This document shows, one piece after another, positions 34,842 to 64,000 of a stretch of 64,000 nucleotides of DNA. Both the position numbers and the translations under genes were made by a program. The number at the start of each line of letters is the position of its first letter. Position 1 is the stretch's first letter. The stretch comes from Clostridia bacterium. Its GTDB lineage: Bacteria > Bacillota > Clostridia > UMGS1810. The stretch is from NCBI GenBank assembly GCA_045654685.1, contig JAZONV010000088.1, positions 585 through 64,584 of the forward strand, read 5' to 3'. Below the pieces are notes generated by a model. That model had not been told where the DNA came from and did no database searches. It was given only the letters and a program-made list of their open reading frames with translations.

Positions 34842-34853
34842 TTAGGACGAAGG

Positions 34854-34985: not shown

Positions 34986-35573
34986 ATGAAAAGTATATCC
35001 AGCAGTATTGCCAATACTTTATGGACTCAAGGTATAATTCAAAAAGAAGATATTGACACTTGCCGATATGGTTTAGATGTATTTATTTCTTCGGTACTAG
35101 AAATTGCAAGCATTTTGACAATAGCAACATTTGTAGAAAATTTCTTTGAGACGGTTTTGTTTTTTACAGCGTTTATACCATTGAGGGTTTATGCCGGTGG
35201 GTATCACGCAGATACAAAATTGAAATGCTATCTTATATCTCTTGGTGTTTATGGCATTTTCACTGTGATAATAAATGAACTTCCGTCGGGTGCATATTTA
35301 CCAGTTACTTTAATTAGCACAATGCTTTCTATGATTATGGTTTTGATTGTTGCCCCTGTTATCCACAAAAATAAAACTGTAAATGAAATTGAAAGGAAAC
35401 ATTACCGAAAGTTTAGCATTTGGGTATGTTCAGTTGAAACGGTGCTAATTCTGTTATTAACAGCTATCTTTTCTCAAAGTTCATTTATCGTTTCATTAAC
35501 GATAGGACAAGCTGCTGTAACATTTTCAATGATAGCAGCAGTAATTAAGGAAATTTTAGTTGATAATGAATAA
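34986..35573 (+). CDS. agrB: AgrB-family autoinducer-processing membrane protease
   Basis: Polytopic membrane protein with the characteristic FIPLRVYAGGYHA segment. Confidence 0.85.
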   Translation: MKSISSSIANTLWTQGIIQKEDIDTCRYGLDVFISSVLEIASILTIATFVENFFETVLFFTAFIPLRVYAGGYHADTKLKCYLISLGVYGIFTVIINELPSGAYLPVTLISTMLSMIMVLIVAPVIHKNKTVNEIERKHYRKFSIWVCSVETVLILLLTAIFSQSSFIVSLTIGQAAVTFSMIAAVIKEILVDNE

Positions 35574-35848: not shown

Positions 35849-36072
35849 TTGCAAAATTTGCACTTTTCCCTAAAAAAAGAGAAATCCCAATAATCAGATA
35901 CAAGCCCTCAAAAAACATTGTTTCAGATTATCCAGGAATTTCTCCAACAGTAAGGATACACGTTCTTCGCATCTTTGTCAAGTATCTTTATAAGTTGGTT
36001 TAGGGAAAAAGAAAAGAACAGTACAAAACTATAAAGTCTAACAAAATGACTTGCTTAGGAAGGAGAAAATTT

Positions 36073-40740: not shown

Positions 40741-40802
40741 ACTTTTTGGGTTGAAGGTTTTTGTTCGTGCAGAAGAATTTTTCTAAAAAAGGAGATTTGA
40801 TT

Positions 40803-43637: not shown

Positions 43638-44486
43638 ATGAAGTACATATATTCACCATATATTATACAATGTGAACAAATTAAACATGAATTCGATAAT
43701 GTATCACCTGTGCGAAAAGTTACGGACTATGAATTTGACTTTTGTCTGAATTGTAATTGCGAGATGTGGATAGATGGCAGGAAATATAAAATAAAAAAAG
43801 GAGATTTTGTGACCCGTTGTCCCGGGCAGAAAGTATCTTTTAGTGGAAAATATGAATGTTATATGTTGACATTGAATTTTTCTGAGCATTGTAAGGATGG
43901 GGACTGTTTCGGGAATTCTTTCAGAAAAACACAACTGAATTTTTCGCCTGACATACAGAGCGTACTTCCGACTGTTTTTTGTCCGATTCACTATGAAGAT
44001 TATTTGCGGATATTTCAAGACCTTGTTTTTTCAAAAGAATCCCACATAAATGAAAATCAGAGGGCGATTTTCCATATCAATGAATTGTTGCATCTTGTCA
44101 TATCCGATGCATATTCATATAATTGTCCGACAAACGGTGTTTTGCCGACTCCGGCAGATGAAGTGTATCAGCACATAAGAGAGCACTACAGAGAGGAAAT
44201 CAAACTTGATGATCTGGCAGACATAGTGCATCTCAGCAAACACTATCTTGTTCGTTTGTTCAGAGAAAATTTTAACACTTCACCCATAAATATGATAATA
44301 AAATTGCGTATGGAATACGCTCAAAAATTATTGGCAGAAACCAATTTGTCCATTAAAGAGATTGCCGCATCCTGCGGATATAAAGACCCGTCTTTTTTTA
44401 ATCGGTATTTCAAAAAGAACTTTACCATGACACCGGATGCCTACAGACAAGCATCAATAAATAATGGAGATGAGTCCAATGGCTAA
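43638..44486 (+). CDS. AraC-family transcriptional regulator, tandem paralog 1
   Basis: MKYIYSPYIIQCEQIKHEF.. N-terminus. C-terminal ..LADIVHLSKHYLVRLFRENF.., ..IAASCGYKDPSFFNRYFKK. Confidence 0.85.
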   Translation: MKYIYSPYIIQCEQIKHEFDNVSPVRKVTDYEFDFCLNCNCEMWIDGRKYKIKKGDFVTRCPGQKVSFSGKYECYMLTLNFSEHCKDGDCFGNSFRKTQLNFSPDIQSVLPTVFCPIHYEDYLRIFQDLVFSKESHINENQRAIFHINELLHLVISDAYSYNCPTNGVLPTPADEVYQHIREHYREEIKLDDLADIVHLSKHYLVRLFRENFNTSPINMIIKLRMEYAQKLLAETNLSIKEIAASCGYKDPSFFNRYFKKNFTMTPDAYRQASINNGDESNG

Positions 44487-45333
44487 ACATATATATTCAC
44501 CATATATTATACAATGCGGTCATTTCAAACATGAATTTGCATCTGCAACGGTGGCAAGAAAAGTTGCATATTACGAATTTGAGTTTTGTCTGGATTGCGA
44601 TTGTAAAATGTGGGTTGACGGCAAAGAGTATAAACTTGACAAAGGATGTCTTGTTACACGGCGTCCAGGTCAAATGGTATATTATAAAGGCAACTGTGAT
44701 TGTTATATGCTGACAGTTGATTTCCATCAGAGCACCCAAAACGTAAAGTATTCGGAGGATGAAGGGGATTTTCAATCCATATTTTCGTTTGACATATGGA
44801 ATAGGATTCCGCTTGTGTTTAAGCCGTCTCATCACAAAGTTTATGAACGTATATTTTGGGATCTTGTTTCCGCAAAAAAATCGGATATAAATGACAATCC
44901 GGCATCACTTTTGCGTATCAAGGAACTGTTGCATCTGGCGGTAGCTGATGTACATTCACACAAATGTCCTTCGGAAAAGGATACGGAATATTTTGTTTTC
45001 CGGGTGTATGATTATATACAAGAACATTTCAGAGAAGAAATAAAACTTGAAGACCTTGTGGATATTGCTCGTATCAGCAAGCACTATCTGATACGGCTGT
45101 TCAAGAGGAATTTCAGTAAATCTCCAATTGAATTGATAATATCATTACGCATGGATTATGCCCGAAAATTGCTCGTTGAAACAGACATGTCAATTAAAGA
45201 GGTTGCCGCATCTTGCGGATATAAAGACCCATGCTTTTTCAACAGGTATTTCAAAAAATTTTTTTCCATAGCGCCTTCTGCATACAGGAGGATTTGGAAA
45301 AGAACGGGAATGTCAGATAATGTGCATATCTGA
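44479..45333 (+). CDS. AraC-family transcriptional regulator, tandem paralog 2
   Basis: MAKHIYSPYIIQCGHFKHEF.. parallels paralog 1. The start overlaps the previous stop by 8 nt; the ORF track's alternative start is 44464. Confidence 0.8.
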   Translation: MAKHIYSPYIIQCGHFKHEFASATVARKVAYYEFEFCLDCDCKMWVDGKEYKLDKGCLVTRRPGQMVYYKGNCDCYMLTVDFHQSTQNVKYSEDEGDFQSIFSFDIWNRIPLVFKPSHHKVYERIFWDLVSAKKSDINDNPASLLRIKELLHLAVADVHSHKCPSEKDTEYFVFRVYDYIQEHFREEIKLEDLVDIARISKHYLIRLFKRNFSKSPIELIISLRMDYARKLLVETDMSIKEVAASCGYKDPCFFNRYFKKFFSIAPSAYRRIWKRTGMSDNVHI

Positions 45334-45540: not shown

Positions 45541-47214
45541 ATGAAAAAAGTACTTTGTATGCTCATGACATTTGTTATGGTGATATGTACGTGCGCCTAT
45601 GCTGCAGACATTTCAATCAAAGACGCAGGCAAAAACATCATAACAGTCAAGGGAGAAGCACCGGTGGGTGCAACAGTTACCATTGCGGTGCTGAACCCCG
45701 GATATGATGTGTCTGATGTTGCCGTATCGGGAGAAAGAGCTTTGCAATATTACGGCAAAGTTGCATCAGGCACCAACGAATTTGAACTTGACGTGAAAAT
45801 GGAAGACCCATACCTGTTCGGAGGCGGTGAATACACATTCATAATTTCTGATAAGTCATCCACCTCTACAGACAGTTTCGGATTCTATTTCTTTGAGAAA
45901 AAGATTGCAGAAATTCAAACTCTCAACGAAAGCGGTTCTGACGGAAGAGCAAAAGAACTTTTTAAAGTTTACAGTCTTGATAAGCACGAGCTTGTGCCGG
46001 TGGTGAAAGAAGAAACCGTCGAAAAAATTCTTGCTCTTGAAGATGAATATGAAATAGATGTAGACAAGATGTATGGAATACTGGTTGAAACACTTTGTAT
46101 CGGGGCATACAGGGACGGTGTTTCAAAACTTTTGAAAAACGGATTTCTCACCTATACAGACATTGTGGGAATAGACTCCGAATCCACATATGAAGATTAT
46201 CTTTCAAACATAAACGAAACAGGTGTCAATGCCGTAAATGATGATGTTTTGGGAAATGAATATAAAACCTCAAGTGAAATCAGAGAAACATTTTCAAAAT
46301 CTGTTCTTTTGAACCTCATAACCAATTCACCCAAAATGGGATATGGTCATGTTTCGGGAATTCTCGAAAAATATGAAGAAGAACTTTCTTTGTTTGGGTT
46401 TGATACAGAAAAGTTAGATGATGTTAAAAACAAGGTTTATGTCTACAAAAAACTTGTTGCATCAGATGCCAAAACTTTGGATGAACTTACCGATACTTTT
46501 GAAAAAGCCATAAAAAATGCTGACGAATCAAAAGAGACAACCTCCGGCGGCGGAGGCGGTGGTGGAGGCGGAGTGTCCGCTCCTTCCGTTTCAGCACCGG
46601 CAGACGGAGCAGAAAAACCTGTTTCAACTGAGCAAAACACTTCCGGCGGATATGTTGAAAACACATCTGTTCCCTTTGAAGATATGAATGATGCATCATG
46701 GGCAACAGACTCTGTTGCATATCTTTACAGACGCGGAATCATATCGGGAAAATCAAGCCGGACCTTTGACCCATCAGGTCTTGTTACAAGAGAAGAATTT
46801 GCAAAAATGGCAGTTCTTGCATTTGTAGGCTCTGCAAGCGGCTCTGTTTCATCCTTTGAAGATGTTTCAGGCTGGTCAGCGCCATATGTGGCAATGGCGG
46901 CATCAAAGGGAATTGTAACCGGAATTTCCGAAAAAGAGTTTAACCCAAAAGGTAATGTTACCCGTGAACAAGCTGCAACAATAATTGCAAGAGCAATGGA
47001 AACTGCAGGATTTGTATTCGAAAATACCGGAGTAAAATTTGACGATGACGATTCAATAAGTGACTGGGCGAAAGAAAAAATTGCCCTTCTTGCCTCCGAA
47101 GAAATAATTTCCGGCAGAGGAGACGGTATGTTCCGTCCCTTGGATAATATGACAAGAGCAGAGGCGGCAAAACTCATATTTGAAGCAATGATGAGAACAG
47201 GAGGAACAAACTGA
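45541..47214 (+). CDS. SLH-anchored surface protein (unknown N-terminal region, poly-Gly linker, three SLH repeats)
   Basis: Signal peptide, then TSGGGGGGGGG linker, then FEDMNDASWATDSVAYLYRRGIISG.., FEDVSGWSAPYVAMAASKGIVTG.., DDDSISDWAKEKIALLASEEIISG.. Confidence 0.8.
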   Translation: MKKVLCMLMTFVMVICTCAYAADISIKDAGKNIITVKGEAPVGATVTIAVLNPGYDVSDVAVSGERALQYYGKVASGTNEFELDVKMEDPYLFGGGEYTFIISDKSSTSTDSFGFYFFEKKIAEIQTLNESGSDGRAKELFKVYSLDKHELVPVVKEETVEKILALEDEYEIDVDKMYGILVETLCIGAYRDGVSKLLKNGFLTYTDIVGIDSESTYEDYLSNINETGVNAVNDDVLGNEYKTSSEIRETFSKSVLLNLITNSPKMGYGHVSGILEKYEEELSLFGFDTEKLDDVKNKVYVYKKLVASDAKTLDELTDTFEKAIKNADESKETTSGGGGGGGGGVSAPSVSAPADGAEKPVSTEQNTSGGYVENTSVPFEDMNDASWATDSVAYLYRRGIISGKSSRTFDPSGLVTREEFAKMAVLAFVGSASGSVSSFEDVSGWSAPYVAMAASKGIVTGISEKEFNPKGNVTREQAATIIARAMETAGFVFENTGVKFDDDDSISDWAKEKIALLASEEIISGRGDGMFRPLDNMTRAEAAKLIFEAMMRTGGTN

Positions 47215-49877
47215 TGACGAAAAAACTCATAGCGTTGGTTTTGAGTGTTTTTGTGGCTTTTTCATCTTGTGCAATGACAGTATTTGGTGAAGAAGCTTCA
47301 GATACTCAAACCACAGTTTCTGCAGATGTTGAATTTGCAAAAGCCTTAGGGATTTTCGCAGATGATGTTGTCCCTGAAGAAACAGTAAAGAGAATAGATC
47401 TTGCAAAATGTATTCTGAACATAATTTTAAAAGGAACAGAACTTTCAACAGAAGACGGAAGCCTTCTTTTTGATGATGTAGAATATGATGATTCAGGATA
47501 TGCAGATGCCATTTCAAAGGCCGGCATAATGGGCGGAGTCGGCAACAGACAGTTTGCTCCCGGCGATAGTGTTACATATTCTCAGGTTTTGAAAGTTTTT
47601 GTATCCTTCCTTGGCTATGATGTGAAAGCACAGGGGCTTGGCGGATATCCGTCAGGATATATGGCAGTTGCAACACAGCTTGGCATAACTGACAAATATG
47701 CCCCCTACGGTGACAGCTTTGTAACATGGGAAAGTTTGGCTTCAATGTTTAAACGTTCTCTGGGAGTTCCGCTTTTCCAGGTAGTGTCCTACAAGGATTC
47801 CACATTTATCTACAATCCCAATCTTGAAAAAGACTATTTGAGAGAATATTTCGGAATACAAAGATATTCCGATGTCATAAACGGAGTGTACGGAACCAAT
47901 GTTATCGGATATGCAGATGTTGAGTATGATGAAATTCTTCTCGGAACAACAGTTTTCAGATTCAACACAGATGTGTTTGATTTGTCTGAAAAACTCGGAT
48001 ACAAAATAGAAGCATATTATGCTGATAACGGCGACCATAATGAAATTTTATATTATGATGAATATGACAATGGTGTAATTTCCCTGGACGGCAGAGAAGT
48101 TGAAGGATTCGAAGGCGGAATCCTCTACTACAACGGCAAAAAGGAAAAGAAATTAAAAATCAATACCGAAACCAACATCATATATAATGGTAAAAACTGT
48201 TCCACCTATGATGAGGACATATTCAGCGTATGGAATCTTTCTTCAATGGACGGTTCATTAAAGGCAATTGACAACAATTCCGACGGAACATATGATTTTA
48301 TTATTCTCGATGCCTACGAATCCTATGTTGTGGGTTCAATAATCGGTGATACAATCGTCCCGAAATACAGAACAGGTTCATATGTTGACATTTCTTCATA
48401 TGTTGAGGGTGAAAACCTTCTTTTCTACAACCTTAAAGGCAAACCAATCAGTATTGAAAAGGTTGTCAAAGGATGCATCATAAGCGTAAGTCACGACATT
48501 GACGGAAATGTGTCCAAAATTATTGTAACAACAGACTCCTACACGGGAGAGATAGACGAAATTGAAGTTGAAAACGGAAGATATTATTTGACAGTTGACG
48601 GAACAAGATATACACCATCCGAAGTTTTGAAACTCAATCCCCAGATTAAAACTTTGAGAGCAGGACAGAAAGTCACCATGATGTTCAACAAGGGCGGTCT
48701 TCTTTCCGATGTTGATGCTCTCGCTTTCCAGATTATTGAAACCGCATATCTTTATGCGGCGAAAAAAGGAAAAGGTCTTGATGCTCAAAACAGCGCAACC
48801 ATCAGAGCGTTCTCCTCGGGCGGATTTTTCCAGAACTATGATCTTGCAGAGCATGTTGAAGTTGTATGGGGCTCGGAAACAGATGTTAAAAAACCTCATG
48901 AAGTTCTTGCAATTTTAGGAAAAACAAATGAGACCGACGTTACAAGACAGGTTATTAATTTCAAGAAAAACGATGAAGGAAAAATAAACTGGATAAACAT
49001 TGCAAGTGACAATGAAAGAAACATAGACGGTCTCTACAGATACGACCTTGATGCCATGGGAATGACAGGTTCAAAAAATTATCTCGGAAACGGATTTGAA
49101 GGCAAACTTTTAGTTAGCGGAACTTCTGTTTTCTCTGTTCCCACAGAAGCCAACAGATACGATGAAGATGTATACTTTGTCGGAAGTCTTACAAACAACA
49201 AAAACTTTACTTTGAGTGAAGCCTATGGTGATGAAAAAAATGGCAACGTTGCTCATTCCATCGTAATTTTGAATGACAAATCCGGAACATTTAAAAATTC
49301 GCCCGGATATATGATTGTTGAGTCAGTTACAAATGCCGTAGATTATGACAGCACACCTTCTGTTAAGATTACAGGCTACATTGCAGGTGCTCAAAAAGAG
49401 TATTTCGGTGACGAAAATGTTCTTAAAAGCGTGACAGGTTCCAATCCCGAAAAAGGCGACCTTATAAAATTCACACTTGACAGAGAAGGACGCATATCCG
49501 AACTTTCTGAATTTGTTTTTGACTCTTCCGAAAGATTTTCAGGAGACATTGCAAAGATGATTCCCACAAAAAAGACAAACCCAAGTCACACCTCTTTTAA
49601 TGTAACAGAAAGATATGTGTTTGGAAAAATCATCAGGTCAAATGATGAAAGTTTTGTTCTCGAAGTGAACAATGGCACCACAATCACAAATGAGTCATAT
49701 TTGAAAGCTGCATCCTACAGATATTACACCTATGAAGACATCGGCTCAAAAGGCGGTCTTTTGCAAAAGGCAAAAAATGAAGCAGTATATGCTTTCCCCG
49801 AAGGTTCACCAAAAGCAAATTATGCAGTAGTATTTGTTAACTATGGTGTTCCCACCGATATAATAGTGTACAGATAA
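47214..49877 (+). CDS. Large secreted protein with N-terminal SLH-like repeats and a long beta-rich region of unknown function
   Basis: TGATG stop/start overlap with the upstream gene. Signal peptide. FDDVEYDDSGYADAISKAGIMGGVGNRQFAPGDSVTYSQVLKVFVSFLG is SLH-like. Confidence 0.7.
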   Translation: MTKKLIALVLSVFVAFSSCAMTVFGEEASDTQTTVSADVEFAKALGIFADDVVPEETVKRIDLAKCILNIILKGTELSTEDGSLLFDDVEYDDSGYADAISKAGIMGGVGNRQFAPGDSVTYSQVLKVFVSFLGYDVKAQGLGGYPSGYMAVATQLGITDKYAPYGDSFVTWESLASMFKRSLGVPLFQVVSYKDSTFIYNPNLEKDYLREYFGIQRYSDVINGVYGTNVIGYADVEYDEILLGTTVFRFNTDVFDLSEKLGYKIEAYYADNGDHNEILYYDEYDNGVISLDGREVEGFEGGILYYNGKKEKKLKINTETNIIYNGKNCSTYDEDIFSVWNLSSMDGSLKAIDNNSDGTYDFIILDAYESYVVGSIIGDTIVPKYRTGSYVDISSYVEGENLLFYNLKGKPISIEKVVKGCIISVSHDIDGNVSKIIVTTDSYTGEIDEIEVENGRYYLTVDGTRYTPSEVLKLNPQIKTLRAGQKVTMMFNKGGLLSDVDALAFQIIETAYLYAAKKGKGLDAQNSATIRAFSSGGFFQNYDLAEHVEVVWGSETDVKKPHEVLAILGKTNETDVTRQVINFKKNDEGKINWINIASDNERNIDGLYRYDLDAMGMTGSKNYLGNGFEGKLLVSGTSVFSVPTEANRYDEDVYFVGSLTNNKNFTLSEAYGDEKNGNVAHSIVILNDKSGTFKNSPGYMIVESVTNAVDYDSTPSVKITGYIAGAQKEYFGDENVLKSVTGSNPEKGDLIKFTLDREGRISELSEFVFDSSERFSGDIAKMIPTKKTNPSHTSFNVTERYVFGKIIRSNDESFVLEVNNGTTITNESYLKAASYRYYTYEDIGSKGGLLQKAKNEAVYAFPEGSPKANYAVVFVNYGVPTDIIVYR

Positions 49878-49891
49878 GGAGGTTAAGATAT

Positions 49892-52800
49892 ATGAAAAAA
49901 ATTATAAGTATAATTCTTGCATCGCTTCTTCTTTTTTCAAGTGCAAGTGCGGCAGTACGCCCCATAAAATTTTATGATTTGGTTTCAAATGAAAATCTTA
50001 TCTTCCCTGAAAAAGTAATTCCTGTTCTGACAGACGGTAACATTGTTATTGAAGCAGAAGACATGGACTATAAAGACCAGGCAAAAGTTGTTCCCAATGA
50101 AAAAGCATCCGGCGGATACGGAATCACTTGTCAGAATGCAACTTTTACAAGTGATGTGGCATTGGTTGATAATGTTACAATGGGATTCAAAGTGGAAATT
50201 CCTGTGTGGGAAATCGGAACATATCATTTGTGGCTTCGTATTTATACCCCCAATTCAAGTTCCACATCCTTTTTTGAATCCTACACAGGCTCATCAGCAT
50301 ATAAAGCAAGATGGCTTACCGTAAAACCTGATTTTTATTGGGTAAAAATCGGAGCGATAAATATGTCTGACGGTATTTTTGAATATAATATAAAATACAG
50401 AGACGTTGGCTTTACTCTTGATAAATTCATCATAACAAACGATAAAAATTTTAATCCTGTCGGAAAAGATGATTTGCCCGACTCAATGCTTGGCATTGAG
50501 AAAGAGCCGATAGCTCCGCCTCCACCGTTTACACCTCCTGCAGGTGTTCACCCCAGAGTAATGGTTCAGGAAAAGGATCTTCCCCAAATCAAGGAAAATG
50601 TGAAGAGCGCTCTCCTTGCTCCCATGTATTCCCAGGTTAAGCAAAGAGCCTTCCTTGAAATGGATTGCCATATGCCCAACAAAGGAATTGCAAATAACGT
50701 GTCTTTGGCACATGTTTTCAATATCCAATGCAGAGCCTTCATATATCTTATGGGTGAAGCGGACAAAGCCCATGCAAGACAAACAGTTCAGTATATGAGA
50801 GATATGTATGACACTCTCATTTGGGACAGAACTGTCGGCGATATCACCCGTCAGATGGGTACAGTTCTTGCAGTAAGCGGATGTGTATATGACTGGTGTT
50901 TTGATGTTTTAACAGACGAAGATAAAGATTATTTCATCAAAAGAATGAAACGTCTTGCATCAATGATGGAAATCGGCTATCCTGCATCTATGCATGAAAC
51001 CTTTGCAGGACACGGTGGTGAAGGTGAACTTTTCTACTTCCAGTCCACAGCCGGAATTGCTATCTATGATGAAGACCCCCAGATGTATAATGCTGCTGCA
51101 GGTGTTCTCTATGAGCACATGTTCCGGACAAGAGAATATTTCAACCATTCAGGTCATCACCCTGCAGGTACTGCATACGGTCCTGTCAGAGCCACATGGG
51201 AAATCATCGGTCAGCTTGTGTTTGAAAGACTTGGTGACCCCAATGTAATGGGAAATGAAACAGACAAAATTCCTTACAGTTTCATAAACTTCAGACAGCC
51301 AAACGGTCTTTTCATAGAAGATGGTGACACATGGATTGCCGTAAATCCCACCACAGGGCCCACATATTCAGCAAACGACCTTCCTATGATGGTATATTCA
51401 ATGCACTTTGGCAACCCCTATGTAAATGGTGAAGCAGTAAAACAGCTTTCTCTCAGAAACTATTCTGCAGGCTCATCACTTTATGATAATGGTGTTCTTG
51501 CCCTTCTCTTTGTAGACCCCAATGTTGGCTACACCTATCCCGATGATTACGGCAAGGAAATGCCCCTCACTCACTTCACAGAATACCCAATCACCACAAT
51601 GACATCAAGAACTTCATGGAGATCAGGTATTGACGGTGAAACTGCAGTTGTGTTTGTAAACGGTCAGGAAAAACTTGTTGGTGACCATGACCATGAGCAC
51701 TCCGATATCGGCGGATTCTCCATCTACTATAAAGGTCTTCTCACATCAGGTGGCGGAACCTATGCAGGTGAAAACGGCGGATGGGGTATAAAACACTACT
51801 ACAACTACTACAGAAGAACGGTTTCCAAAAACTGTCTCACAATATATGATCCCGATGAAACATTCGGAATTACGGGATATCCCATAAAGTATGACCTTGC
51901 AAATGACGGCGGTCAGAGATTTGAAGAAAACACAGACACTTTGCCTGAATTCCTTGAACACGCAGACCATGCAAAAACTGTCGGAACCTATGCAGGCCCC
52001 AACAGACAAACTCCGGAGTTTTCATATCTCAAAACCGACCTTACAGATGCATATTCCGATAAAATCACAGGCTACACCCGTTCAACTGTCAGCCTGAACC
52101 TTTTCAACACAGATTATCCTCTTGTATTCATTTGCTATGATAACGTGTCATCTGCAAAATCCACATTCAAAAAGACATGGAATCTTCAGTCAATTGAAAC
52201 AGAGCCTGTAACAGTTAACAACGTGACAACAATCACAAGAAACAGTTATGGCTACACAGGAAAACTTGTTGTAAACACTCTCATTCCCGAAGGTCAGAAC
52301 GCAGTATTTGAAAATGTGGGCGGTGACGGAAAAGAAAGTTTGTCAGGCGGTGCAAATCATCCCAACCCCGACAAAGCAGGAGCAGACCACGAACAGGGCA
52401 AATGGAGACTTGAACTTTCACCAAGAAAGAACTCAAAGGATGACATTTTCTTAAATGCAATGTTTGTAACAGACAGAACGAAAAATCTTCCCGACCTTCC
52501 AATGACAAAGATTGAAACACTCGATTTTGTGGGAGTGTCTGTTATGGACAGACTTGTTCTTTTCTCAAAGAAAAGAGATGCAGTTTCCACCTCTTTCAAC
52601 ATAACAGTTCCAACTTCCGAATATAGCGAAATCTGCACTCTCATAACAGATGTAGCCCCCGGAAAATGGCAGGTTACAGGTGCAAACGGCTCATTTGTAA
52701 CAGAAGTTAAGGCGGAAGAAAAAGCTCTCTATGCCCGACTCAAAGCAGGGGACTATTCTTTCACAAAAGTGGATGATTCCACAGAAGCTGTAAAAATTGA

Positions 52801-53611
52801 CTACCCCAGAGACGAAAGAGTACTTCGTACAGGTGATGTTTTGGTATATGACCAGACAGGCAAACGTTTTGCCTACACTCATCAGCCAACAGTTTTGAAA
52901 GATGGTCAGCCATATCTTTCCGAAGATGATTTCAGACAATATGGCGTTGATGTTGCAGTAAGCGGAAATCAGATTATCCTCACAAGAGCTAATCACCGCA
53001 CAACCATGACAATGGGTGATACATATGCGGTATCAAATGATGTCGGCATAAATCTCACATCTGCACCTTTCGTAGGGGAAAACGGTCAGGTATATATCAA
53101 TCCTCTTGACCACAAGAAAATTCTTAATGCAAATATGTATTTTGATTCATATTCAAGAATTCTGAGAACCTTGAAACTGGCTGAAAAAGGCAGCTCCGAG
53201 ATGTTAAACGGCGTTGTTGATACAAACAAAGTAGTTGAGCCAATTTACTATGAAGCATCAGGCACAGACGGAAATGACGTTTCAGGAGCCTTTGACTATA
53301 ACTACAAAACAAGATGGTCATCAGAAGGTGTATCTGAATATATCATCATTGACTATGGTACAAAGATAGATTTTGACAAGCTTATGATTGCATTCCTTGA
53401 AGGTGATCTCAGAAGAGAAAAATTTGAAATCTTAGTATCCGATGACGGAATTGAATTCAAAGAAGTGTTCAAAGGTGAGTCAAGCGGTGCTACTGCCGAG
53501 CTTGAGCCTTTCCTTGTTAACGCATCGGGAAGATATGTCAAAGTATACTGCCACGGAAACAATCTTAATAAATGGAACTCAATACTTGAAATTGTAGCAC
53601 TTGAAAAATAA
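49892..53611 (+). CDS. Heparinase II/III-like (DUF4962-type) putative polysaccharide lyase with an N-terminal CBM-like module and a C-terminal discoidin (F5/8 type C)-like module
   Basis: Starts 14 nt after the upstream stop. IVIEAEDMDY..GYGITC..LDKFIITND (CBM-like); PPAGVHPRVMV..; HGGEGELFYF; GDHDHEHSDIGGFSIYYKG (heparinase II/III-like); C-terminal ..YNYKTRWSSEG..YVKVYCHGNNLNKWNSILEI. Confidence 0.65.
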   Translation: MKKIISIILASLLLFSSASAAVRPIKFYDLVSNENLIFPEKVIPVLTDGNIVIEAEDMDYKDQAKVVPNEKASGGYGITCQNATFTSDVALVDNVTMGFKVEIPVWEIGTYHLWLRIYTPNSSSTSFFESYTGSSAYKARWLTVKPDFYWVKIGAINMSDGIFEYNIKYRDVGFTLDKFIITNDKNFNPVGKDDLPDSMLGIEKEPIAPPPPFTPPAGVHPRVMVQEKDLPQIKENVKSALLAPMYSQVKQRAFLEMDCHMPNKGIANNVSLAHVFNIQCRAFIYLMGEADKAHARQTVQYMRDMYDTLIWDRTVGDITRQMGTVLAVSGCVYDWCFDVLTDEDKDYFIKRMKRLASMMEIGYPASMHETFAGHGGEGELFYFQSTAGIAIYDEDPQMYNAAAGVLYEHMFRTREYFNHSGHHPAGTAYGPVRATWEIIGQLVFERLGDPNVMGNETDKIPYSFINFRQPNGLFIEDGDTWIAVNPTTGPTYSANDLPMMVYSMHFGNPYVNGEAVKQLSLRNYSAGSSLYDNGVLALLFVDPNVGYTYPDDYGKEMPLTHFTEYPITTMTSRTSWRSGIDGETAVVFVNGQEKLVGDHDHEHSDIGGFSIYYKGLLTSGGGTYAGENGGWGIKHYYNYYRRTVSKNCLTIYDPDETFGITGYPIKYDLANDGGQRFEENTDTLPEFLEHADHAKTVGTYAGPNRQTPEFSYLKTDLTDAYSDKITGYTRSTVSLNLFNTDYPLVFICYDNVSSAKSTFKKTWNLQSIETEPVTVNNVTTITRNSYGYTGKLVVNTLIPEGQNAVFENVGGDGKESLSGGANHPNPDKAGADHEQGKWRLELSPRKNSKDDIFLNAMFVTDRTKNLPDLPMTKIETLDFVGVSVMDRLVLFSKKRDAVSTSFNITVPTSEYSEICTLITDVAPGKWQVTGANGSFVTEVKAEEKALYARLKAGDYSFTKVDDSTEAVKIDYPRDERVLRTGDVLVYDQTGKRFAYTHQPTVLKDGQPYLSEDDFRQYGVDVAVSGNQIILTRANHRTTMTMGDTYAVSNDVGINLTSAPFVGENGQVYINPLDHKKILNANMYFDSYSRILRTLKLAEKGSSEMLNGVVDTNKVVEPIYYEASGTDGNDVSGAFDYNYKTRWSSEGVSEYIIIDYGTKIDFDKLMIAFLEGDLRREKFEILVSDDGIEFKEVFKGESSGATAELEPFLVNASGRYVKVYCHGNNLNKWNSILEIVALEK

Positions 53612-53700: not shown

Positions 53701-55371
53701 ATGAAAACAATACTTAAAGTATCAATCCTAACATTATTAATGATGTTACTCATCTGTCCCGCTTCCCTTGCATCCTCGCCTGTCACATTGGAAACTGCAG
53801 TATCCTATGCACCCGAAGGCTATGCAGCCATGGTCTATGCAAGCGATGAAACCGGGACGGCAACAAGCTATGTCTACACAGTAAACGGTGTAGATTCTGA
53901 ACAAACTGAAGAAACTTCCTTCAAGGCATCCGTAGTATTTGGCATAAACGAAATTTATGTCACCGCCTACGATGCTGACGGCGATGTGATTGGTGTTTCT
54001 GACACCATAGAAATTATCGGTAATGAATATGCTTCTATTCAGACACACAAACTTTTTGATGTTGATGTTGTATCCCCCACATTCAGAACCAATCAGGGAA
54101 CCCAGGGTGATGTCAGCACCGTTGTATCTGAAGCATTCGACCTTTCGGGAAGCTCTGATCCCGAAAACGCATCTCACGGAAAGGTAATTCATCTTAAGTC
54201 CGAGAACCCCGTTAATGTGGGCGGTGCGAGAAATGCCGACATTAGCTACTATAACGAACGTAAAACTTTTGACGCAGTGTATAAAAGCGGAAAAAATACA
54301 ATGATGTATGATATGGATATTATGCCCATCAGCGTTGATAAGGACAGTAAGATTCTGACTGTTCGTTATAATAATGATAGCGCCAGCACATATCCTTTCA
54401 TCTTCAAGACCGACGGAACCGTTCAGGTTGCAACATCAGTTGACTCTACTTATGTTTCAGACACTATTGTTCCCGTGTTTGATGCACCACTTGAAAAATG
54501 GATTAACATGCAGATTATAATGGATGGTGTGTGCGAGCAGATAATTCTCATTGCAGACGGTGTTGTATATTCTTCCTTCGGGTTTGACACAGCATCAAAA
54601 GAAAATCTTAAATTGAATCTTGAAAAGACCTGTCAGATGTCCTACATAATGTTTGCCGTTGAAGCAGGCGGTATGGGTGGAGAAGGAAAATGCAACGAAT
54701 TCTATGTTGATAACTTCGCCTACAAATCAACCAATCACCTCATCAGATATGAATTTCACTCATCTGCACAAAAAGGTGATGACTCATATGAACTAAACGC
54801 TTTCCCACTTGATGGTGCAAGTGTTGTCATCGAATTTTCACAGGATATGGAAGAAATTCTGAAAGAAGATGTTATCTTCAAGGTTAATGGTGAGGAAAAA
54901 GATTTTGACTTTTCCTTTGATGAGGGAATGGATGTTATAATCATCACACCCATCGGTGAATTTTTGGGAAGAGAAAACTGTATAGTTTCATTCCCCAAGG
55001 CAAGAACCGCTCTTGGAGCAATGGCATCAGGCGATGATTTTGTTGAATTCACCGTTGATTTTCCGCCTTGTGCAATCACAAAATGTGAAACAGATTCTGT
55101 TGTACCCGGTGAATATGCAACCTTTGATGTTGAAGTGAGAAATCTTCTCTCTGATGATAAGGACGGAATCATCATTGTGGGTCTGTACAAAGACGGCGGT
55201 CTTAAGAGAGTCGGCACAACACCTGCATACTGCAACGGTGAGGATGAAAAGTCCGGTCAGGTGTCTGTAATGATTCCCGAAGACTACAATGAAGAAGATT
55301 ATGACATGATTGCATATTATGTCTATCAGAATTCTCTCTACATTATAGATTTCATAGAAGTTGAAGCGTAA
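53701..55371 (+). CDS. Secreted protein of unknown function (beta-rich, possibly LamG/Ig-like modules)
   Basis: Signal peptide MKTILKVSILTLLMMLLICPASLA. No catalytic motif recognised. Confidence 0.65.
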   Translation: MKTILKVSILTLLMMLLICPASLASSPVTLETAVSYAPEGYAAMVYASDETGTATSYVYTVNGVDSEQTEETSFKASVVFGINEIYVTAYDADGDVIGVSDTIEIIGNEYASIQTHKLFDVDVVSPTFRTNQGTQGDVSTVVSEAFDLSGSSDPENASHGKVIHLKSENPVNVGGARNADISYYNERKTFDAVYKSGKNTMMYDMDIMPISVDKDSKILTVRYNNDSASTYPFIFKTDGTVQVATSVDSTYVSDTIVPVFDAPLEKWINMQIIMDGVCEQIILIADGVVYSSFGFDTASKENLKLNLEKTCQMSYIMFAVEAGGMGGEGKCNEFYVDNFAYKSTNHLIRYEFHSSAQKGDDSYELNAFPLDGASVVIEFSQDMEEILKEDVIFKVNGEEKDFDFSFDEGMDVIIITPIGEFLGRENCIVSFPKARTALGAMASGDDFVEFTVDFPPCAITKCETDSVVPGEYATFDVEVRNLLSDDKDGIIIVGLYKDGGLKRVGTTPAYCNGEDEKSGQVSVMIPEDYNEEDYDMIAYYVYQNSLYIIDFIEVEA

Positions 55372-55385
55372 AAGAAATATTATTG

Positions 55386-55433
55386 ACAATGGAAATATTC
55401 TATAAACACATAGAATATTTCCATTGTTTTTTT
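55386..55433 (+). terminator. Strong intrinsic terminator
   Basis: 18-bp stem acaatggaaatattctat / atagaatatttccattgt followed by a 7-T run. Confidence 0.9.
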
Positions 55434-55723
55434 GGCTCTTTGTCAATAGTTGGGGTCAAAATTGAATAATGGAATTTTGATGGCGGTTGCAGCTATTTAT
55501 GCAGCCGCCTTTCCTATGCCTGATTTTTCTTGAGCTCTATTTGTTGGACACCCCAACATTTATTATAGAGCCTTTACAATTCAAAGTGGAATTTGTACAT
55601 TGACGGACATCTTTATTTATGGTACATTATAATGTATAATAGAATGTAATGTCCGTGTGATATGCCATATCACACAAAGAATAGGACAACAACATTAGGC
55701 ATACACAGGAAAGGAAGGATAAT

Positions 55724-57391
55724 ATGAGAAAAATTTTATCTTTGGTTTTGGTACTCATTTTTACTCTCTCTGTAACCGCTTTTGGAGCAGATGTTGAGAT
55801 TAAAGATGCAGGAAGGGACATCGTAACTGTCAGAGGCAGTATAGGAGAAGAAGGGTTGGTTTCAGTAATGATAATAAACCCCGGCTTCTATGCAGAAGAC
55901 GTCTTACCTCAAAGTAAACAGGCAGTTCAGTTCTACGGAACTGCAAATGAGGGCGCTGACGGTTTTGAAATCGATGTGAGGATGACAGACCCTCACGGAT
56001 ATGAAGGAGGAGAATATACAGTTGTATATTCCAATGGTTCTATCACCAAGACTGAATCCTTTGTGTTCTATTTCTACGGAAAAAAACTTGACACAATTCA
56101 GACCCTTAATGAAGAAGGCATTGACGGACAGGCGCAAGACGCATACAGAGTGTACAGCCTTGACAGCACAGAACTCTATGGTGCAGTTTCTGTATCAAGT
56201 CTCGAACGTGTACTTTCTTCAATGGGCGAATTTGAAGAAAATGTTGATGGTATGTATGCCGCTCTTTTAGATGCACTTCATATTGCAGCATATTCAGAAG
56301 GTGCTGATTTACTCATTGAAGACGGCAGACTTGCCTATGTTGATGTTGTTGGCATAGATGAAGAAGCTACATATTCGGATTATCTTACAAAAATTTCAGA
56401 AACCGGTGTGGGCAAAGTGCATGATGCAGTTCTCGGCGGTGAATATGAAAAAGACGAAGACATAACAAAAGCTTTTTCCGAAGCTGTTGTGCTTAACTAT
56501 ATAACATATCCCAAGTCTCTCGGATTTGGTCATGTTTCGGAAGTTTTTGAAAAATATGCAGAACTTCTTCTTGAAAACGAAATTGATACAGAACTTATGG
56601 ATGATGTTGACAACAAGAACTATGTGTATAAAAAATTTGCCACATCAAGCGACAAGAGTTTTTCAGAACTTAAGAAAACATATGAAAAAGCTCTGAAAGC
56701 AGCTGATAATCAGTATGAATCCTCCGGCGGTGGCGGAGGCGGCGGTGGCGGAAGCTCCTCCGGCACAGTTTCAATTCCTTCAGACGGCCCCGGTCTCCCT
56801 GTAGTATCAGGTCAGGAAAACGGAAGCGGATATCTGGAAAATCCCGAAGTTCCCTTTGAAGATATGGAAAATGCTTCATGGGCACAGGAATCCGTTGCCG
56901 CATTGTATAAAAGAAACATAATTTCCGGAAGATCGGAAAAAGTGTTTGACCCATCAGGCTTGGTTACAAGAGAAGAATTTGCAAAAATGGCGGTTCTTGC
57001 TTTTGCAGGAAAAGCAATTGGTGCACAAAACCCCTTCTCTGATGTGTCAGGATGGTCAGTTCCATATGTGGCAACTGCATTTTCAGAAGGAATCATTCAG
57101 GGTATAAGCGAAACAAGCTTTAACCCCCTTGGAAATATAACCCGTGAGCAGGCGGCAACCATAATTGCAAGAGCAATGATCAATGCCGGCTACACTTTCC
57201 AAAATGAACCCTCCGAGTTTGACGATGATGACTCCATAAGCCCCTGGGCAAAAGACAGCATCGGAGCTCTGGCAGGAGATGAGATAATTAATGGTAGAGA
57301 TGAAGGCCTTTTCTGCCCCGGAGAAAACATGACCCGTGCAGAAGCGGCAAAACTTATCTACACAGCAATGGCAATTGTAGGGAGGGATTAA
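55724..57391 (+). CDS. SLH-anchored surface protein, paralog of 45541..47214
   Basis: Collinear with the paralog: GADVEIKDAGRDIVTVRG.., poly-Gly linker, three SLH repeats. Confidence 0.8.
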   Translation: MRKILSLVLVLIFTLSVTAFGADVEIKDAGRDIVTVRGSIGEEGLVSVMIINPGFYAEDVLPQSKQAVQFYGTANEGADGFEIDVRMTDPHGYEGGEYTVVYSNGSITKTESFVFYFYGKKLDTIQTLNEEGIDGQAQDAYRVYSLDSTELYGAVSVSSLERVLSSMGEFEENVDGMYAALLDALHIAAYSEGADLLIEDGRLAYVDVVGIDEEATYSDYLTKISETGVGKVHDAVLGGEYEKDEDITKAFSEAVVLNYITYPKSLGFGHVSEVFEKYAELLLENEIDTELMDDVDNKNYVYKKFATSSDKSFSELKKTYEKALKAADNQYESSGGGGGGGGGSSSGTVSIPSDGPGLPVVSGQENGSGYLENPEVPFEDMENASWAQESVAALYKRNIISGRSEKVFDPSGLVTREEFAKMAVLAFAGKAIGAQNPFSDVSGWSVPYVATAFSEGIIQGISETSFNPLGNITREQAATIIARAMINAGYTFQNEPSEFDDDDSISPWAKDSIGALAGDEIINGRDEGLFCPGENMTRAEAAKLIYTAMAIVGRD

Positions 57392-57394
57392 TTA

Positions 57395-60046
57395 GTGAAT
57401 AAAAGAATAATATCTGTAATTCTGACTCTTGCATTTGTTATATCGGGATTTGCATGCACTTCTTTTGCACAAGATGAAGTTGATGCTCCCGTAATTTCAA
57501 AAGATTTTGAATTTGCAAAAGCAGTCGGAATATTTGGAGACGAATACGTTCCCAACGAAGCAGTTTCAAGAATTGGACTTGCAAAATGTTTTTCAAATAT
57601 CATCTTAAAAGGCGTTGAGCCTGCATTGGATAGCGGAAGTGTGCTTTTTGATGATGTTGACTATGCTGATGCCGGCTATGCAGATGCAATGGCAGGTGCC
57701 GGAATAATGACCGGCGTGGGCCCAAGAACATTTTTACCCAACGGAAATGTTACATATATGCAGCTTCTCAAAGTTTTTGTATCTTTCCTTGGCTACGATG
57801 TTAAAGCTCAGGGACTTGGCGGATATCCTTCAGGATATATGGCAGTTGCAACAGAGCTGGGACTTACAGACAAAAACTCACCATATTTGGATAGCTACAT
57901 AACATATGAAACTCTTGCAACAATGTTTAAGGTTGCTCTCAGAGTGCCCCTTTTCCAGATTCTCTATTATGAAGACAGCACCTTCATATACAGAGAAAAT
58001 GAAAAAACCGACTACCTCAGAGAATATCTTGACGTACACAGATATTCACAGGTGGTAAATGCCGTATATAACACAAATATAATAAACGGCAAAGAAATCG
58101 AACATGATGAAATAATTCTCGGAAACACAACTTTCAGATTTGATGCAAAAACATCCGACCTTTATGAAAAACTCGGATACAAACTCGAAGTTTTCTACAA
58201 GAAAAACGGCATGGATGCACAGATTATCTATTATGATGAATATGATAATAACGTAATCACATTGGACGGAAAAGATGTGGAAGGCTATGAAGACGGAAAC
58301 ATTCTTTATTCTGTGGACAACAAAGAAAAAAGAATTAAAATCTCCACAGATACAAACGTTCTCTACAACGGCAACCTTTGTGCCGAATATGACGAAACAA
58401 TTTTCAATCAATGGTATCTCACCAATAAAGACGGTTCCCTTAAAGCAATCGACAACAACGGTGACAAAAAGTACGATTTCGTAATTGTTGATGCATATGA
58501 GTCCTATGTTGTAGATACAATTACCGCTGAAGCAATCATTCCAATGTACAGAAGCTCTGTTGTTATAGACATTAGTGCCTATGTTCAGGGTGAAGCTGTT
58601 CTTTTCAGAAACGTTAAGGGAAAACCCGTAAGCATTGACAGCGTTGTACAGGGAAGTGTCATAAGCGTATCCAAAAACCTTGACGGTGTTGTAACAAACA
58701 TTGTCGTTACAGCCGACACCTACACAGGTGAAGTTGAGGAAATAGAGATTGAAGACGGAAAGTATTATATAACCGTTAGCGGAACAAGATATAATCCTTC
58801 AGCTTGTCTTTCCTACAATCCCCAGGTTTCAAGACTTCGTCCGGGCAACAAGGTTACAATGATGTTCAACAAAGGCGGACTTTTATCCGACATTGAAATG
58901 ATGAAATATCAGCAGATTGATACTGCATATCTTATGGATGCAAAAACCGCAAAAGGTCTTGAAGCGGGAAATTCCGTAAGCATAAGATTTTTCTCATCAG
59001 GCGGATTTTTCGGAACATTTGACCTTGCTGAAAAAGTTGAAGTTCTCTATGGAGAAGAAACATACTATTTAAAACCCATAGAAGTTCTTGATAAATTTGG
59101 TTATGAAGGAAACAAAGCAGACGGAAACATCAAAAGACAACCATTTATGTACAAGAAAAACAAAGACGGCAAGATCAATTGGGTGAATATCGCCAAAGAA
59201 GGTTCAGATCCTGTGAACGGTTTGTATAAATATAAACTTACAGACATTGGTCTTTCTGAAAGCCCCAAATTCTATGGATCAACTTTTGAAGGAAAACTTC
59301 TTTTGAACGGTACTGCAATATTCTGCGTACCCAATGAAGAAAACAGAGACGACGATTCGTTCTATAATGTTAAGACAAGTCTTGAAAACAACAACGCCGG
59401 ATATAATGGCATCCAGATCTATGGTTCAAAGAAAGAAAGCCGTATTGCAACTGCCATTGTCATAACATCTGAAACCCAGGGTGCAAACCTTTCTTCATCG
59501 GTTATGATTGTTGATAGTGTAACAGATGCTCTTGACCCCAATGGCATTCCTGCCGTTAAGGTAAAAGGCTATGTTGGCGGAGCAGTAAAAGAATATTATG
59601 GTACACGTGCTTCTCTTACGGATGAAAACGGAATTTCACCTGCCCAGGGAGATGTGGTTTCCATAAAAGTCGGAAGAGAGGATAAAATCGTAGAATACAC
59701 TATTCTCTTTGATCAGGACATAAAAGACCTGACCGGAACTGCAAATCCGACAGTATCAAGAATGGACGAAAGATACAGATATCTTTACGGAAGACTTGAC
59801 TGGTCCGATGAAGAAAGTTTCCTTGTTGAAATTGATGACGGTTCGGGCAATCTCACAAAAGACGTATACCTCAAGTCCACATCATACAGATACTACGTAT
59901 GTGAAGACCTTGGAACAAGAGGAGTCAAGGTGAGAACTGCAAAAGCAGCAGAAGTTTTTGCATATCCTGCTGGATATGAGAAAGCAAACAATATATTCAT
60001 GTGGACAAATTACGGTACACCACAGATTATTGTAGTTTATAAATAA
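57395..60046 (+). CDS. Large secreted SLH-like/beta-rich protein, paralog of 47214..49877
   Basis: GTG start 3 nt after the upstream stop. Collinear similarity (..LKVFVSFLGYDVKAQGLGGYPSGYMAVAT..). Confidence 0.7.
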   Translation: MNKRIISVILTLAFVISGFACTSFAQDEVDAPVISKDFEFAKAVGIFGDEYVPNEAVSRIGLAKCFSNIILKGVEPALDSGSVLFDDVDYADAGYADAMAGAGIMTGVGPRTFLPNGNVTYMQLLKVFVSFLGYDVKAQGLGGYPSGYMAVATELGLTDKNSPYLDSYITYETLATMFKVALRVPLFQILYYEDSTFIYRENEKTDYLREYLDVHRYSQVVNAVYNTNIINGKEIEHDEIILGNTTFRFDAKTSDLYEKLGYKLEVFYKKNGMDAQIIYYDEYDNNVITLDGKDVEGYEDGNILYSVDNKEKRIKISTDTNVLYNGNLCAEYDETIFNQWYLTNKDGSLKAIDNNGDKKYDFVIVDAYESYVVDTITAEAIIPMYRSSVVIDISAYVQGEAVLFRNVKGKPVSIDSVVQGSVISVSKNLDGVVTNIVVTADTYTGEVEEIEIEDGKYYITVSGTRYNPSACLSYNPQVSRLRPGNKVTMMFNKGGLLSDIEMMKYQQIDTAYLMDAKTAKGLEAGNSVSIRFFSSGGFFGTFDLAEKVEVLYGEETYYLKPIEVLDKFGYEGNKADGNIKRQPFMYKKNKDGKINWVNIAKEGSDPVNGLYKYKLTDIGLSESPKFYGSTFEGKLLLNGTAIFCVPNEENRDDDSFYNVKTSLENNNAGYNGIQIYGSKKESRIATAIVITSETQGANLSSSVMIVDSVTDALDPNGIPAVKVKGYVGGAVKEYYGTRASLTDENGISPAQGDVVSIKVGREDKIVEYTILFDQDIKDLTGTANPTVSRMDERYRYLYGRLDWSDEESFLVEIDDGSGNLTKDVYLKSTSYRYYVCEDLGTRGVKVRTAKAAEVFAYPAGYEKANNIFMWTNYGTPQIIVVYK

Positions 60047-63779: not shown

Positions 63780-64000
63780 ATGATATTTCCACGTCCAAAA
63801 AGTGAAGTCTATCATGAAGGCTCATATACAATGAAAGCATACAGAGAAACAAGTGATCTTGTTTCTCTGTATGAAGAATTAAAATCAGGAACAGAAGACC
63901 TTACGGTTAAAACTGAACTGACACTTGGCAAAGAAGAATATACCATAAATGTTGATGAAAACGGCATTTTGATTACTGTTTCAACAGATGAAGGGCTTTT
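63780..64000 (+). CDS. GH20-like protein, paralog 3 (5' part; runs off the window end)
   Basis: MIFPRPKSEVYHEGSYTMKAY...LTLGKEEYTINVDENGILITVSTDEGL parallels the N-termini at 26540 and 38881. RBS aaggaga upstream. Confidence 0.6.
   Translation, partial: MIFPRPKSEVYHEGSYTMKAYRETSDLVSLYEELKSGTEDLTVKTELTLGKEEYTINVDENGILITVSTDEGL

Follow-up and report, generated by a model that had tools for sequence, protein, structure and literature searches.

Tandem Gene Cassettes Coupling a Pair of S-Layer Homology Proteins to a PL21-Type Lyase in a Clostridia Bacterium

Organization of the Cassettes

The DNA analyzed here, called the window below, is a stretch of 64,000 nucleotides from a Clostridia bacterium (assembly GCA_045654685.1, contig JAZONV010000088.1, positions 585 to 64,584 of the forward strand), the last third of which carries two consecutive gene cassettes of the same plan (table 1). 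In each of them, genes for two different proteins with S-layer homology (SLH) domains, A1 and A2 or their paralogs B1 and B2, are followed by the gene for a large secreted lyase, A3 or B3, which resembles heparinase II of polysaccharide lyase (PL) family 21. We consider it fairly probable that these are two tandem polysaccharide-utilization cassettes of Gram-positive type, in which A1 and A2 would build a structure on the cell wall that serves the PL21 lyase.

The reading frames of A1, A2 and A3 lie, on the + strand, exactly at the coordinates that the initial annotation of this DNA had given, and their tight coupling is likewise borne out: A1 and A2 share one base at position 47214 (in TGATG), while the spacer between A2 and A3 measures 14 nt and holds an AAGGAGG ribosome-binding site. 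Typical Sec signal peptides, read from the sequence, start all three proteins as well as the product of the following gene, X. The same annotation had described a unit of three genes; the triad is indeed present, but X belongs to it as a fourth gene and the whole triad is tandemly duplicated. Since a strong terminator-like hairpin is found only after X, cassette A is best read as a four-gene operon, A1-A2-A3-X. Cassette B is a second, diverged triad with the same gene order and the same tight spacing, and it runs on into a gene of glycoside hydrolase (GH) family 20, as does the orthologous locus L014, one of the 18 non-redundant loci, seeded from relatives of A2, that we have examined. In L014 an X-like gene comes after the GH20 gene, so that cassette B probably continues beyond the end of the window. 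Upstream of cassette A lie two overlapping genes for AraC-type regulators which, judged by their position only, probably switch on the cassette operon.

Table 1. Position and Features of the Two Cassettes and of Other Genes in the Window
Feature	Coordinates	Strand	Length	Description
AraC-type regulator 1	43638..44486	+	282 aa	Directly upstream of cassette A; Pfam HTH_18, E 6.6e-25
AraC-type regulator 2	44464..45333	+	289 aa	23-nt overlap with regulator 1; 207 nt upstream of A1; Pfam HTH_18, E 9.1e-24
A1	45541..47214	+	557 aa	Signal peptide; Ig-like beta domain ~23-116; helical region ~118-329; Gly-rich linker 330-376; three SLH repeats 377-553
A2	47214..49877	+	887 aa	Signal peptide; divergent SLH trimer ~36-185; ~700 aa chain of small beta-barrels
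A3	49892..53611	+	1239 aa	Signal peptide; beta domain 22-200; Pro-rich linker; PL21 core 216-958; Cu_amine_oxidN1-like ~1000-1090; CBM32 1126-1234
X	53701..55371	+	556 aa	Secreted protein between the two triads
Terminator-like hairpin	55385..55428	+		19-bp stem, then T run, after cassette A; consensus scan only
Second hairpin	55482-55509			Consensus scan only
B1	55724..57391	+	555 aa	Paralog of A1 (53 % identity); three Pfam SLH, E 5.8e-38
B2	57395..60046	+	883 aa	Paralog of A2 (52 % identity); GTG start, 3 nt past B1 stop
B3	60060..63755	+	1231 aa	Paralog of A3 (66.5 % identity); HepII_C; Cu_amine_oxidN1 (E 3.4e-6, aa 1010-1080); CBM32
GH20-family gene, start	63780..64000	+		24 nt past B3; no signal peptide; runs beyond the window; 92 % identity over 73 aa to GH20 of L014
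Cellulosome-like set	39-788, 871-4038, 4120-7800	+		Three consecutive genes
Spo0A gene	8557-9342	+		Pfam Spo0A_C, E 1.6e-45
mnmE, jag, yidC	20482-23547	-		Gene cluster
Other enzymes and third AraC-type regulator	26540-28411, 28985-29902, 30019-32481, 38881-40740, 40761-42116 (+); 42458-43342 (-)	+ and -		Two divergent GH20-like, GDSL esterase, GH2 beta-mannosidase-like, GH39-like, AraC regulator
agr-like set	32836-35573	+		LytTR response regulator, GHKL histidine kinase, AgrB
Adjacent open reading frames	36046-37143, 37155-38003	+	365 aa, 282 aa	Without Pfam match

The Lyase and the Accompanying Secreted Protein

The core of A3 had been proposed to be heparinase II/III-like or of the DUF4962 kind; the first half of this proposal stands, with PL21-like as the more exact term, while DUF4962 matches only below threshold. 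The initial annotation had let its reading hang on a match of this core to lyase folds, and such a match is given by the phmmer alignment with heparinase II (PDB 2FUQ), in which residues 216-958 of A3 pair with residues 19-746 of the enzyme at E 3.5e-106. The previously noticed motif GDHDHEHSDIGGFSIYYKG is present in A3, where it aligns with His406 and His408 of heparinase II. The catalytic residues of the latter are His202, Tyr257 and His406, with Glu205 as the neutralizing residue (PMC12088678); in our alignment His202, Glu205, Tyr257 and His406 correspond to H374, E377, Y429 and H601 of A3. The same catalytic set is found in B3 and in the lyases of L001, L002, L012, L013 and L014, the equivalent of His202 being missing from the lyases of L005, L015 and L023. 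Pfam also recognizes the HepII_C domain in both A3 and B3. By full-length homology and intact catalytic residues, A3 is, at the level of sequence, unambiguously assigned to the PL21 family.

Its closest characterized counterpart, heparinase II of Pedobacter heparinus (HepB, PL21, PDB 2FUQ/3E80), is like A3 and B3 along the whole core, i.e., in the (alpha/alpha)6 toroid, the beta-sandwich, HepII_C and the catalytic residues. A3 differs from it in coming from a Gram-positive anaerobe and in being about 490 residues longer, owing to an N-terminal beta domain, a Cu_amine_oxidN1-like domain and a carbohydrate-binding module (CBM) of family 32. The last of these, assigned by Pfam as F5_F8_type_C/CBM32, agrees with the discoidin-like end predicted earlier. 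The N-terminus (residues 22-200) had been called CBM-like: it is a beta domain as expected, but no family could be assigned to it by Pfam (E<=10) or by sequence searches of the PDB. The match to Cu_amine_oxidN1 is weak in A3. The module, a candidate protein-protein docking element, recurs in many cassette lyases and in L025 forms a separate open reading frame (ORF) of 397 aa (12847-14040) right after the A2-like gene. As anticipated, A3 is without an anchor of its own, since no SLH, dockerin or LPXTG/sortase signal was detected in it.

Gene X has full-length homologs downstream of the lyase in L001 (79 % identity) and L014 (45 %), and its C-terminus is common to genes of L002, L012 and L013 at 34 % identity; this C-terminal part occurs also in proteins of Big_5 type. 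Searches of Pfam (to E<=10) and of the PDB gave no match for X.

The Two SLH Proteins

A1 ends, as had been reported, with three SLH repeats (Pfam, E 2.8e-42, ~377-553), which retain the TRAE-type Arg motif throughout in the forms TREE, TREQ and TRAE. Its first 330 residues have no match in Pfam (E<=10), NCBIfam or sequence searches of the PDB; an NCBIfam match of "NEAT/LRR" type was set aside, as it spans the SLH region only. The AlphaFold2 (AF2) model suggests an Ig-like sandwich (23-116) and a helical region (118-329), connected by a poly-Gly linker to the SLH module. A word-indexed search with the head of A1 returned 4 relatives.

A2 has the reverse arrangement. The SLH-like repeats that had been noticed at its N-terminus are borderline in Pfam (20.5 bits vs. 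a cut-off of 20.8), but the family profile and the AF2 model confirm that they form an SLH trimer: the profile matches the trimers of Sap, SbsB and SpaA in the PDB (E 1e-10, residues 22-172), and the SLH part of the model (pLDDT 78, the predicted local confidence) superposes on SpaA and Sap with a Foldseek probability of 1.0 and TM (target) scores of 0.6-0.74. The Arg of the TRAE motif is kept in repeat 1 only (R60, invariant in 32 members of the family), Tyr and Trp taking its place in repeats 2 and 3. This SLH trimer is predicted to bind pyruvylated wall polymer. The remaining ~700 residues are beta-rich without family match, as stated before, in sequence searches and by Foldseek. In the AF2 model they are predicted to form a chain of small OB/SH3-like beta-barrels, for which Foldseek found no meaningful structural neighbor in the PDB and BFVD, the only matches being those of low TM to HIN, CSD and LEF-3 OB-fold arrays and to the DDB1 beta-propeller. 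With hhalign no regular internal repeat appears in this body, apart from a single shared hairpin motif (~415-441 and 743-770, probability 87 %). Taken together, for the non-SLH parts of A1 and A2 we found neither a family in Pfam or NCBIfam nor a fold in the PDB nor a description in the literature.

Lipobox-like stretches (AFSSC and SGFAC in A2 and B2) had raised the possibility of lipoprotein anchoring, which we rejected as only 9 of 146 family members have a lipobox. Likewise rejected was the notion that the A2 family is rare: a word-indexed search gave 13 relatives, and the exhaustive search with a hidden Markov model overturned this result. The best 150 representatives of 50 %-identity clusters are all full-length matches with E<1e-121, and 7,969 cluster representatives match at E<=1e-30. 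These proteins are named only "S-layer homology domain-containing protein" and come from metagenome-assembled genomes (MAGs) of Ruminococcaceae, Oscillospiraceae and Clostridia. Some of them carry a further domain ahead of the SLH repeats, CBM32 in the A2-type proteins P0116, P0128 and P0143 and Golvesin_C in P0109, and such fusions tie the A2 family to carbohydrate recognition. In two very long sequences, P0082 (2313 aa) and P0099 (2594 aa), 4-5 partial matches each to the A2 profile surround internal SLH modules, and these proteins may have arisen as fusions of several units or as tandem arrays.

A1 and A2 as a Unit and the Evolution of the Cassettes

How closely are the two SLH proteins associated with each other? 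In all 15 unfused pairs that were compared the junction between their genes is tight, with overlaps of at most 4 nt and gaps not exceeding 15 nt. Moreover, the two have been joined into single polypeptides on two occasions. In P0077 (1493 aa, found in two JGI samples and followed by a PL21 gene) an A1 head (E 1e-68) and three SLH repeats are connected by a linker to an A2 part that begins at profile position 25, without a second signal peptide, while in P0152 (1281 aa) an A1 head (E 8e-43) is joined to the A2 body via a single SLH module. The tight junctions and these two independent natural fusions strongly support the prediction that A1 and A2 constitute a functional unit.

The lyase follows the same history at a slower pace. 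When genes 1, 2 and 3 are compared over ten triads, their matrices of pairwise identity correlate with r = 0.95-0.96, indicating that the cassettes duplicate and diverge as units. Pairs of orthologous cassettes are window A and L001, window B and L014, and L012 and L013. Between L012 and L013 the lyase is 99 % identical, A2 88 % and A1 75 %, and between window B and L014 the corresponding values are 89, 68 and 77 %. At the DNA level L012 and L013, which belong to two different MAGs, form a mosaic: the two PL21 genes and the greater part of A2 are 98-100 % identical, and identity falls to about 74 % (70-78 %) in A1, in the initial ~300 codons of A2 and in most of the X-like gene (L012 1033-3700 and 9118-10300). 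Such cassette-like swapping of non-catalytic genes is a pattern typically seen in proteins exposed on the surface that undergo diversifying selection or allelic exchange.

Conservation across Related Loci

The initial annotation had made its reading depend on co-conservation of the three genes, and this is what we found: besides the two copies in the window, the same triad is present in 10 further loci. It occurs in L001/L011, L002-4/L027, L010, L012, L013, L014, L015 and L021/22, and in L023/24 with its first and second genes fused. The loci come from gut samples of humans, Hadza among them, and of ruminants, and from similar environments, one having been found by a metagenome scan with a narrow pattern; GCA_045541875.1, a Clostridia MAG with at least three such cassettes, is the closest genome. 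The A2-type protein is directly preceded by one with C-terminal SLH repeats in 16 of the 18 loci; in 13 of them this is a clear homolog of A1, fused to A2 in one case. In 3 or 4 others (L009, L018, L025 and, less regularly, L019) its place is taken by a non-homologous protein of the same plan, namely a beta head, helices, a Gly linker and three C-terminal SLH repeats; the A2-like proteins of these four loci are distant, with 22-26 % identity. Two loci (L005/L016 and L006) have no SLH partner before the A2-like protein.

Lyases of the heparinase II/III superfamily are part of the cluster in 16 loci and in 12 of them follow A2 immediately, with gaps of 0-22 nt maintained over A2 identities of 28-100 %. 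ABC importers are frequent neighbors: a substrate-binding protein (SBP) with two permeases of the ATP-binding cassette (ABC) type adjoins five loci (L005, L018, L019, L021 and L023), GH88 occurs in two (L002 and L019) and GH20 in several, while a sulfatase is found in none.

Comparison with Known Systems

Display of carbohydrate-active enzymes (CAZymes) by SLH domains is already known; what differs here is a dedicated, non-catalytic SLH pair beside an anchor-less PL21 lyase. SLH-anchored enzymes of Firmicutes such as XynA1 of Paenibacillus sp. JDR-2, ChiW of Paenibacillus FPU-7 and the SLH glycosidases of Caldicellulosiruptor hold polysaccharide breakdown at the cell surface, beside ABC importers (PMC4765114, PMC5132251). 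In all these cases the SLH domains lie within the polypeptide of the enzyme, whereas in our cassettes the enzyme lacks an anchor and is accompanied by two separate non-catalytic SLH proteins.

The anchoring scaffoldins of cellulosomes (SdbA, OlpB, Orf2p) are non-catalytic SLH proteins displaying secreted enzymes. A1 and A2, however, are without cohesin, A3 and X without dockerin, and the pair is specific to its locus rather than a general scaffold. The window itself contains a cellulosome-like set of three consecutive genes near its start. One product is a dockerin protein, another combines two cohesins with Listeria-Bacteroides repeats and a dockerin, and the third is an anchoring scaffoldin that has two cohesins and, at its C-terminus, three SLH repeats; hence, the organism has classical cohesin-dockerin display beside the SLH pair.

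S-layer proteins such as SbsB of Geobacillus, Sap and EA1 of Bacillus anthracis and SpaA of Paenibacillus alvei share with A2 an SLH trimer of superposable fold, about 700 residues of beta domains and a similar length. A2 is unlike them in that its body has no detectable similarity to theirs, and in being multi-copy, encoded within lyase operons and paired with a second SLH protein.

Sus-like polysaccharide-utilization loci (PULs), or utilisomes, of Bacteroidota, for example the heparin PUL of B. thetaiotaomicron, have a comparable logic, with a regulator, a surface endo-acting enzyme, non-catalytic surface proteins and, in relatives of our cassettes, an importer and GH88-type enzymes. Yet the cassettes operate without an outer membrane, rely on SLH anchoring to wall polymer and have no relationship to these systems in sequence or fold, the SusC and SusD families being absent from the Pfam tables of the window and the related loci. 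Finally, Gram-positive PULs (gpPULs) of Roseburia and Eubacterium share the combination of CAZymes and regulator, together with the ABC transporter found in relatives; as described, they do not include a dedicated pair of SLH proteins, while the cassettes of the window have no adjoining transporter. Of the features used to define gpPULs, the window has CAZymes and AraC regulators; the stretch at 36-64 kb contains no sugar transporter, and transporters adjoin homologous cassettes in relatives. The literature searched holds no account of the cassette, which agrees with the earlier statement that no system of this composition had been described and with a 2022 review according to which no gpPUL for glycosaminoglycans had been characterized from gut Firmicutes (PMC9067506).

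Functional Interpretation

In functional terms, these results raise a question: What would two wall-anchored proteins do for a lyase that has no anchor? According to the mechanism that we propose, each cassette would be expressed as one operon of Sec-secreted proteins in an uncultured, Oscillospiraceae-like member of the gut or rumen Clostridia. A1 would be held on pyruvylated secondary cell-wall polymer by its three C-terminal SLH repeats, carrying its Ig-like and helical head on the Gly-rich tether, while A2 would be held by its N-terminal SLH trimer, with the ~700-residue string of beta-barrels pointing outward. Made in fixed proportion, the two would act together as a single surface structure of two subunits, which is anchored to the wall and reserved for the lyase locus. 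A3, equipped with its own CBM32, would cut a polymer of uronic acid and N-acetylhexosamine by His/Tyr-mediated beta-elimination, and X, seen within the window in cassette A only, would be an accessory secreted protein. The A1/A2 structure would most probably keep the anchor-less lyase, or its substrate and products, or both, at the surface. Unsaturated oligosaccharides would thus reach an ABC importer instead of competitors and undergo intracellular processing by enzymes of GH88/GH20 type. We infer that A1 and A2 form a complex and that the pair binds the lyase or glycan. The initial annotation had envisaged a wall-tethered complex of two SLH partners and the lyase; the joint action of the SLH proteins is upheld by junctions and fusions, but no interaction module was identified that would connect them to the enzyme, and the CBM32 of some family members is the one hint of glycan capture.

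Several other findings, here considered together, weigh against this proposal. No cohesin or dockerin was detected in A1, A2, A3, X or B1-B3 (Pfam E<=0.01), nor in their unassigned parts (E<=10), by the same Pfam search that does detect these modules in the ORFs at 39-7800. For the proteins of the window, neither the head of A1 nor the body of A2 showed a recognizable carbohydrate-binding fold, and the AF2 model of A1, built from 5 sequences, is of low confidence (pLDDT 54). The whole 64-kb window contains neither a sugar ABC transporter nor GH88. The sample of related loci is small and biased toward relatives of A2. Within it, the enzyme adjoining the A2-like protein of L006 has its own SLH domain and L005/L016 lack the A1 partner, which means that tethering by the pair is not universal. 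Extra PL21 paralogs without their own A1 and A2 occur in L002, L012-14 and L021; these were checked for SLH domains and none carries any, which lends no support to tethering. As for the enzyme, A3 matches the NCBIfam HepB model (NF045571) at E 6.7e-142 with 474 bits, under the equivalog cut-off of 600 bits. Besides, of the residues His408, Asp425 and His451, which we take to be the zinc ligands of heparinase II, only His408 is kept in A3 (as H603); Asp425 and His451 align with Gly and Lys and so appear to be replaced in both A3 and B3.

The HepB score below the cut-off and the apparent replacement of zinc ligands imply that specificity for heparin is not to be assumed, and the lack of a sulfatase in any related locus indicates that the substrate may not be heparin. 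Our best guess, held with low confidence, is an unsulfated polymer resembling heparosan or other glycosaminoglycans.

A bolder form of the proposal can be formulated, which we regard as possible but tentative. The A1-A2 pair would then be a widespread display scaffold of gut and rumen Clostridia, composed of two subunits and independent of cohesin and dockerin, with one version per polysaccharide locus, which docks the anchor-less lyase and accessory proteins and passes the products to the ABC importer, as a structural counterpart of the utilisome in Gram-positive bacteria. Docking would possibly proceed via the Cu_amine_oxidN1-like module or the N-terminal domain of the lyase. The analogy with the glycan-capture machines of outer membranes, already drawn in the initial annotation, is in our opinion a reasonable hypothesis.

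Alternatively, A1 and A2 could be surface glycan-binding proteins, analogous to those of SusD/E/F type, which trap the polysaccharide, or hold back oligosaccharides until the ABC importer takes them up, without binding the lyase, the latter being free or sitting on its substrate via CBM32. We consider this rather unlikely, even if it would account for L018 and L019, where the A2-like gene is directly followed by SBP and permeases with no enzyme, for the CBM32 or Golvesin_C domains on some members of the A2 family, for the presence of CBM32 and an N-terminal beta domain on the lyase itself and for the partner-less extra lyases in the same loci. The very tight A2-lyase junction of 12 loci speaks against it, as does the absence of any CBM-like fold or family in the A1 head and A2 body, the latter having few invariant residues that might mark a binding site.

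A second alternative, which appears improbable to us, is that A1 and A2 are structural paralogs of the S-layer or envelope, forming a condition-specific lattice of two components or antigenic and phage-evasion variants, and are merely co-regulated with the lyase. A2 has the size and architecture of genuine S-layer proteins with N-terminal SLH domains (SbsB, of 892 aa, is matched), and the faster evolution of the partners with respect to the enzyme, their cassette-like allelic replacement and the occurrence of several paralogs per genome speak for it as well. On the other hand, the pair lies inside lyase/CAZyme/ABC clusters with operon-like spacing in 16 of the 18 loci, over A2 identities of 22-100 %. 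As a rule S-layer genes stand alone and are strongly expressed, so that a setting within lyase operons is atypical of them, and the CBM32 fusions indicate a function related to carbohydrates. Very improbable, finally, is that A2 or A1 is an unrecognized CAZyme aiding the lyase, such as an esterase, a substitute for sulfatase or a new family of glycoside hydrolase or lyase: large regions without Pfam or PDB match and the conserved motifs GYGHV (A1) and G748-D749 (A2) would leave room for it, but the A2 body is predicted as small OB/SH3-like barrels with no large catalytic domain, the A1 head consists of a small Ig-like domain and helices, and most of the invariant residues belong to the types usually met at structural positions, namely Gly, Tyr, Pro and Asn.

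The favored reading, that of a wall structure serving the lyase, has consequences for a field in which much less is understood of how gut Firmicutes harvest glycans than of the Sus-like systems found in Bacteroidota. The analysis defines a recurrent cassette with two uncharacterized protein families, at least one of which has thousands of sequence clusters, for which there is no Pfam model beyond SLH. In uncultured Oscillospiraceae and Clostridia of human, Hadza and ruminant guts, these families are genetically locked to ABC importers and to lyases of heparinase II/III type. Should the pair be a scaffold or capture device, this would explain how anchor-less lyases are retained at the surface of Gram-positive bacteria, and would provide a genomic marker of acidic-glycan loci in MAGs; the PL21 enzymes of Firmicutes would then join a family whose known members are nearly all from Bacteroidota. 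In addition, the way in which non-catalytic genes are swapped like cassettes suggests that they are targets of phage or immune selection.

Other Features of the Window

Upstream of the cassettes (table 1) lie further genes with a relation to glycans, which encode a GDSL esterase, two GH20-like proteins of divergent sequence, a GH39-like and a GH2 beta-mannosidase-like protein and, on the opposite strand, a third AraC regulator. The window as a whole is devoid of sulfatases. An agr-like quorum-sensing set encodes a LytTR response regulator, a GHKL histidine kinase and AgrB; two adjacent ORFs nearby are without Pfam match. The Spo0A gene indicates that the source is an endospore-forming Firmicute. 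On the reverse strand lies a cluster of mnmE, jag and yidC, which usually adjoins the replication origin; the cumulative GC skew of the window shows a small dip only, at 24-26 kb.

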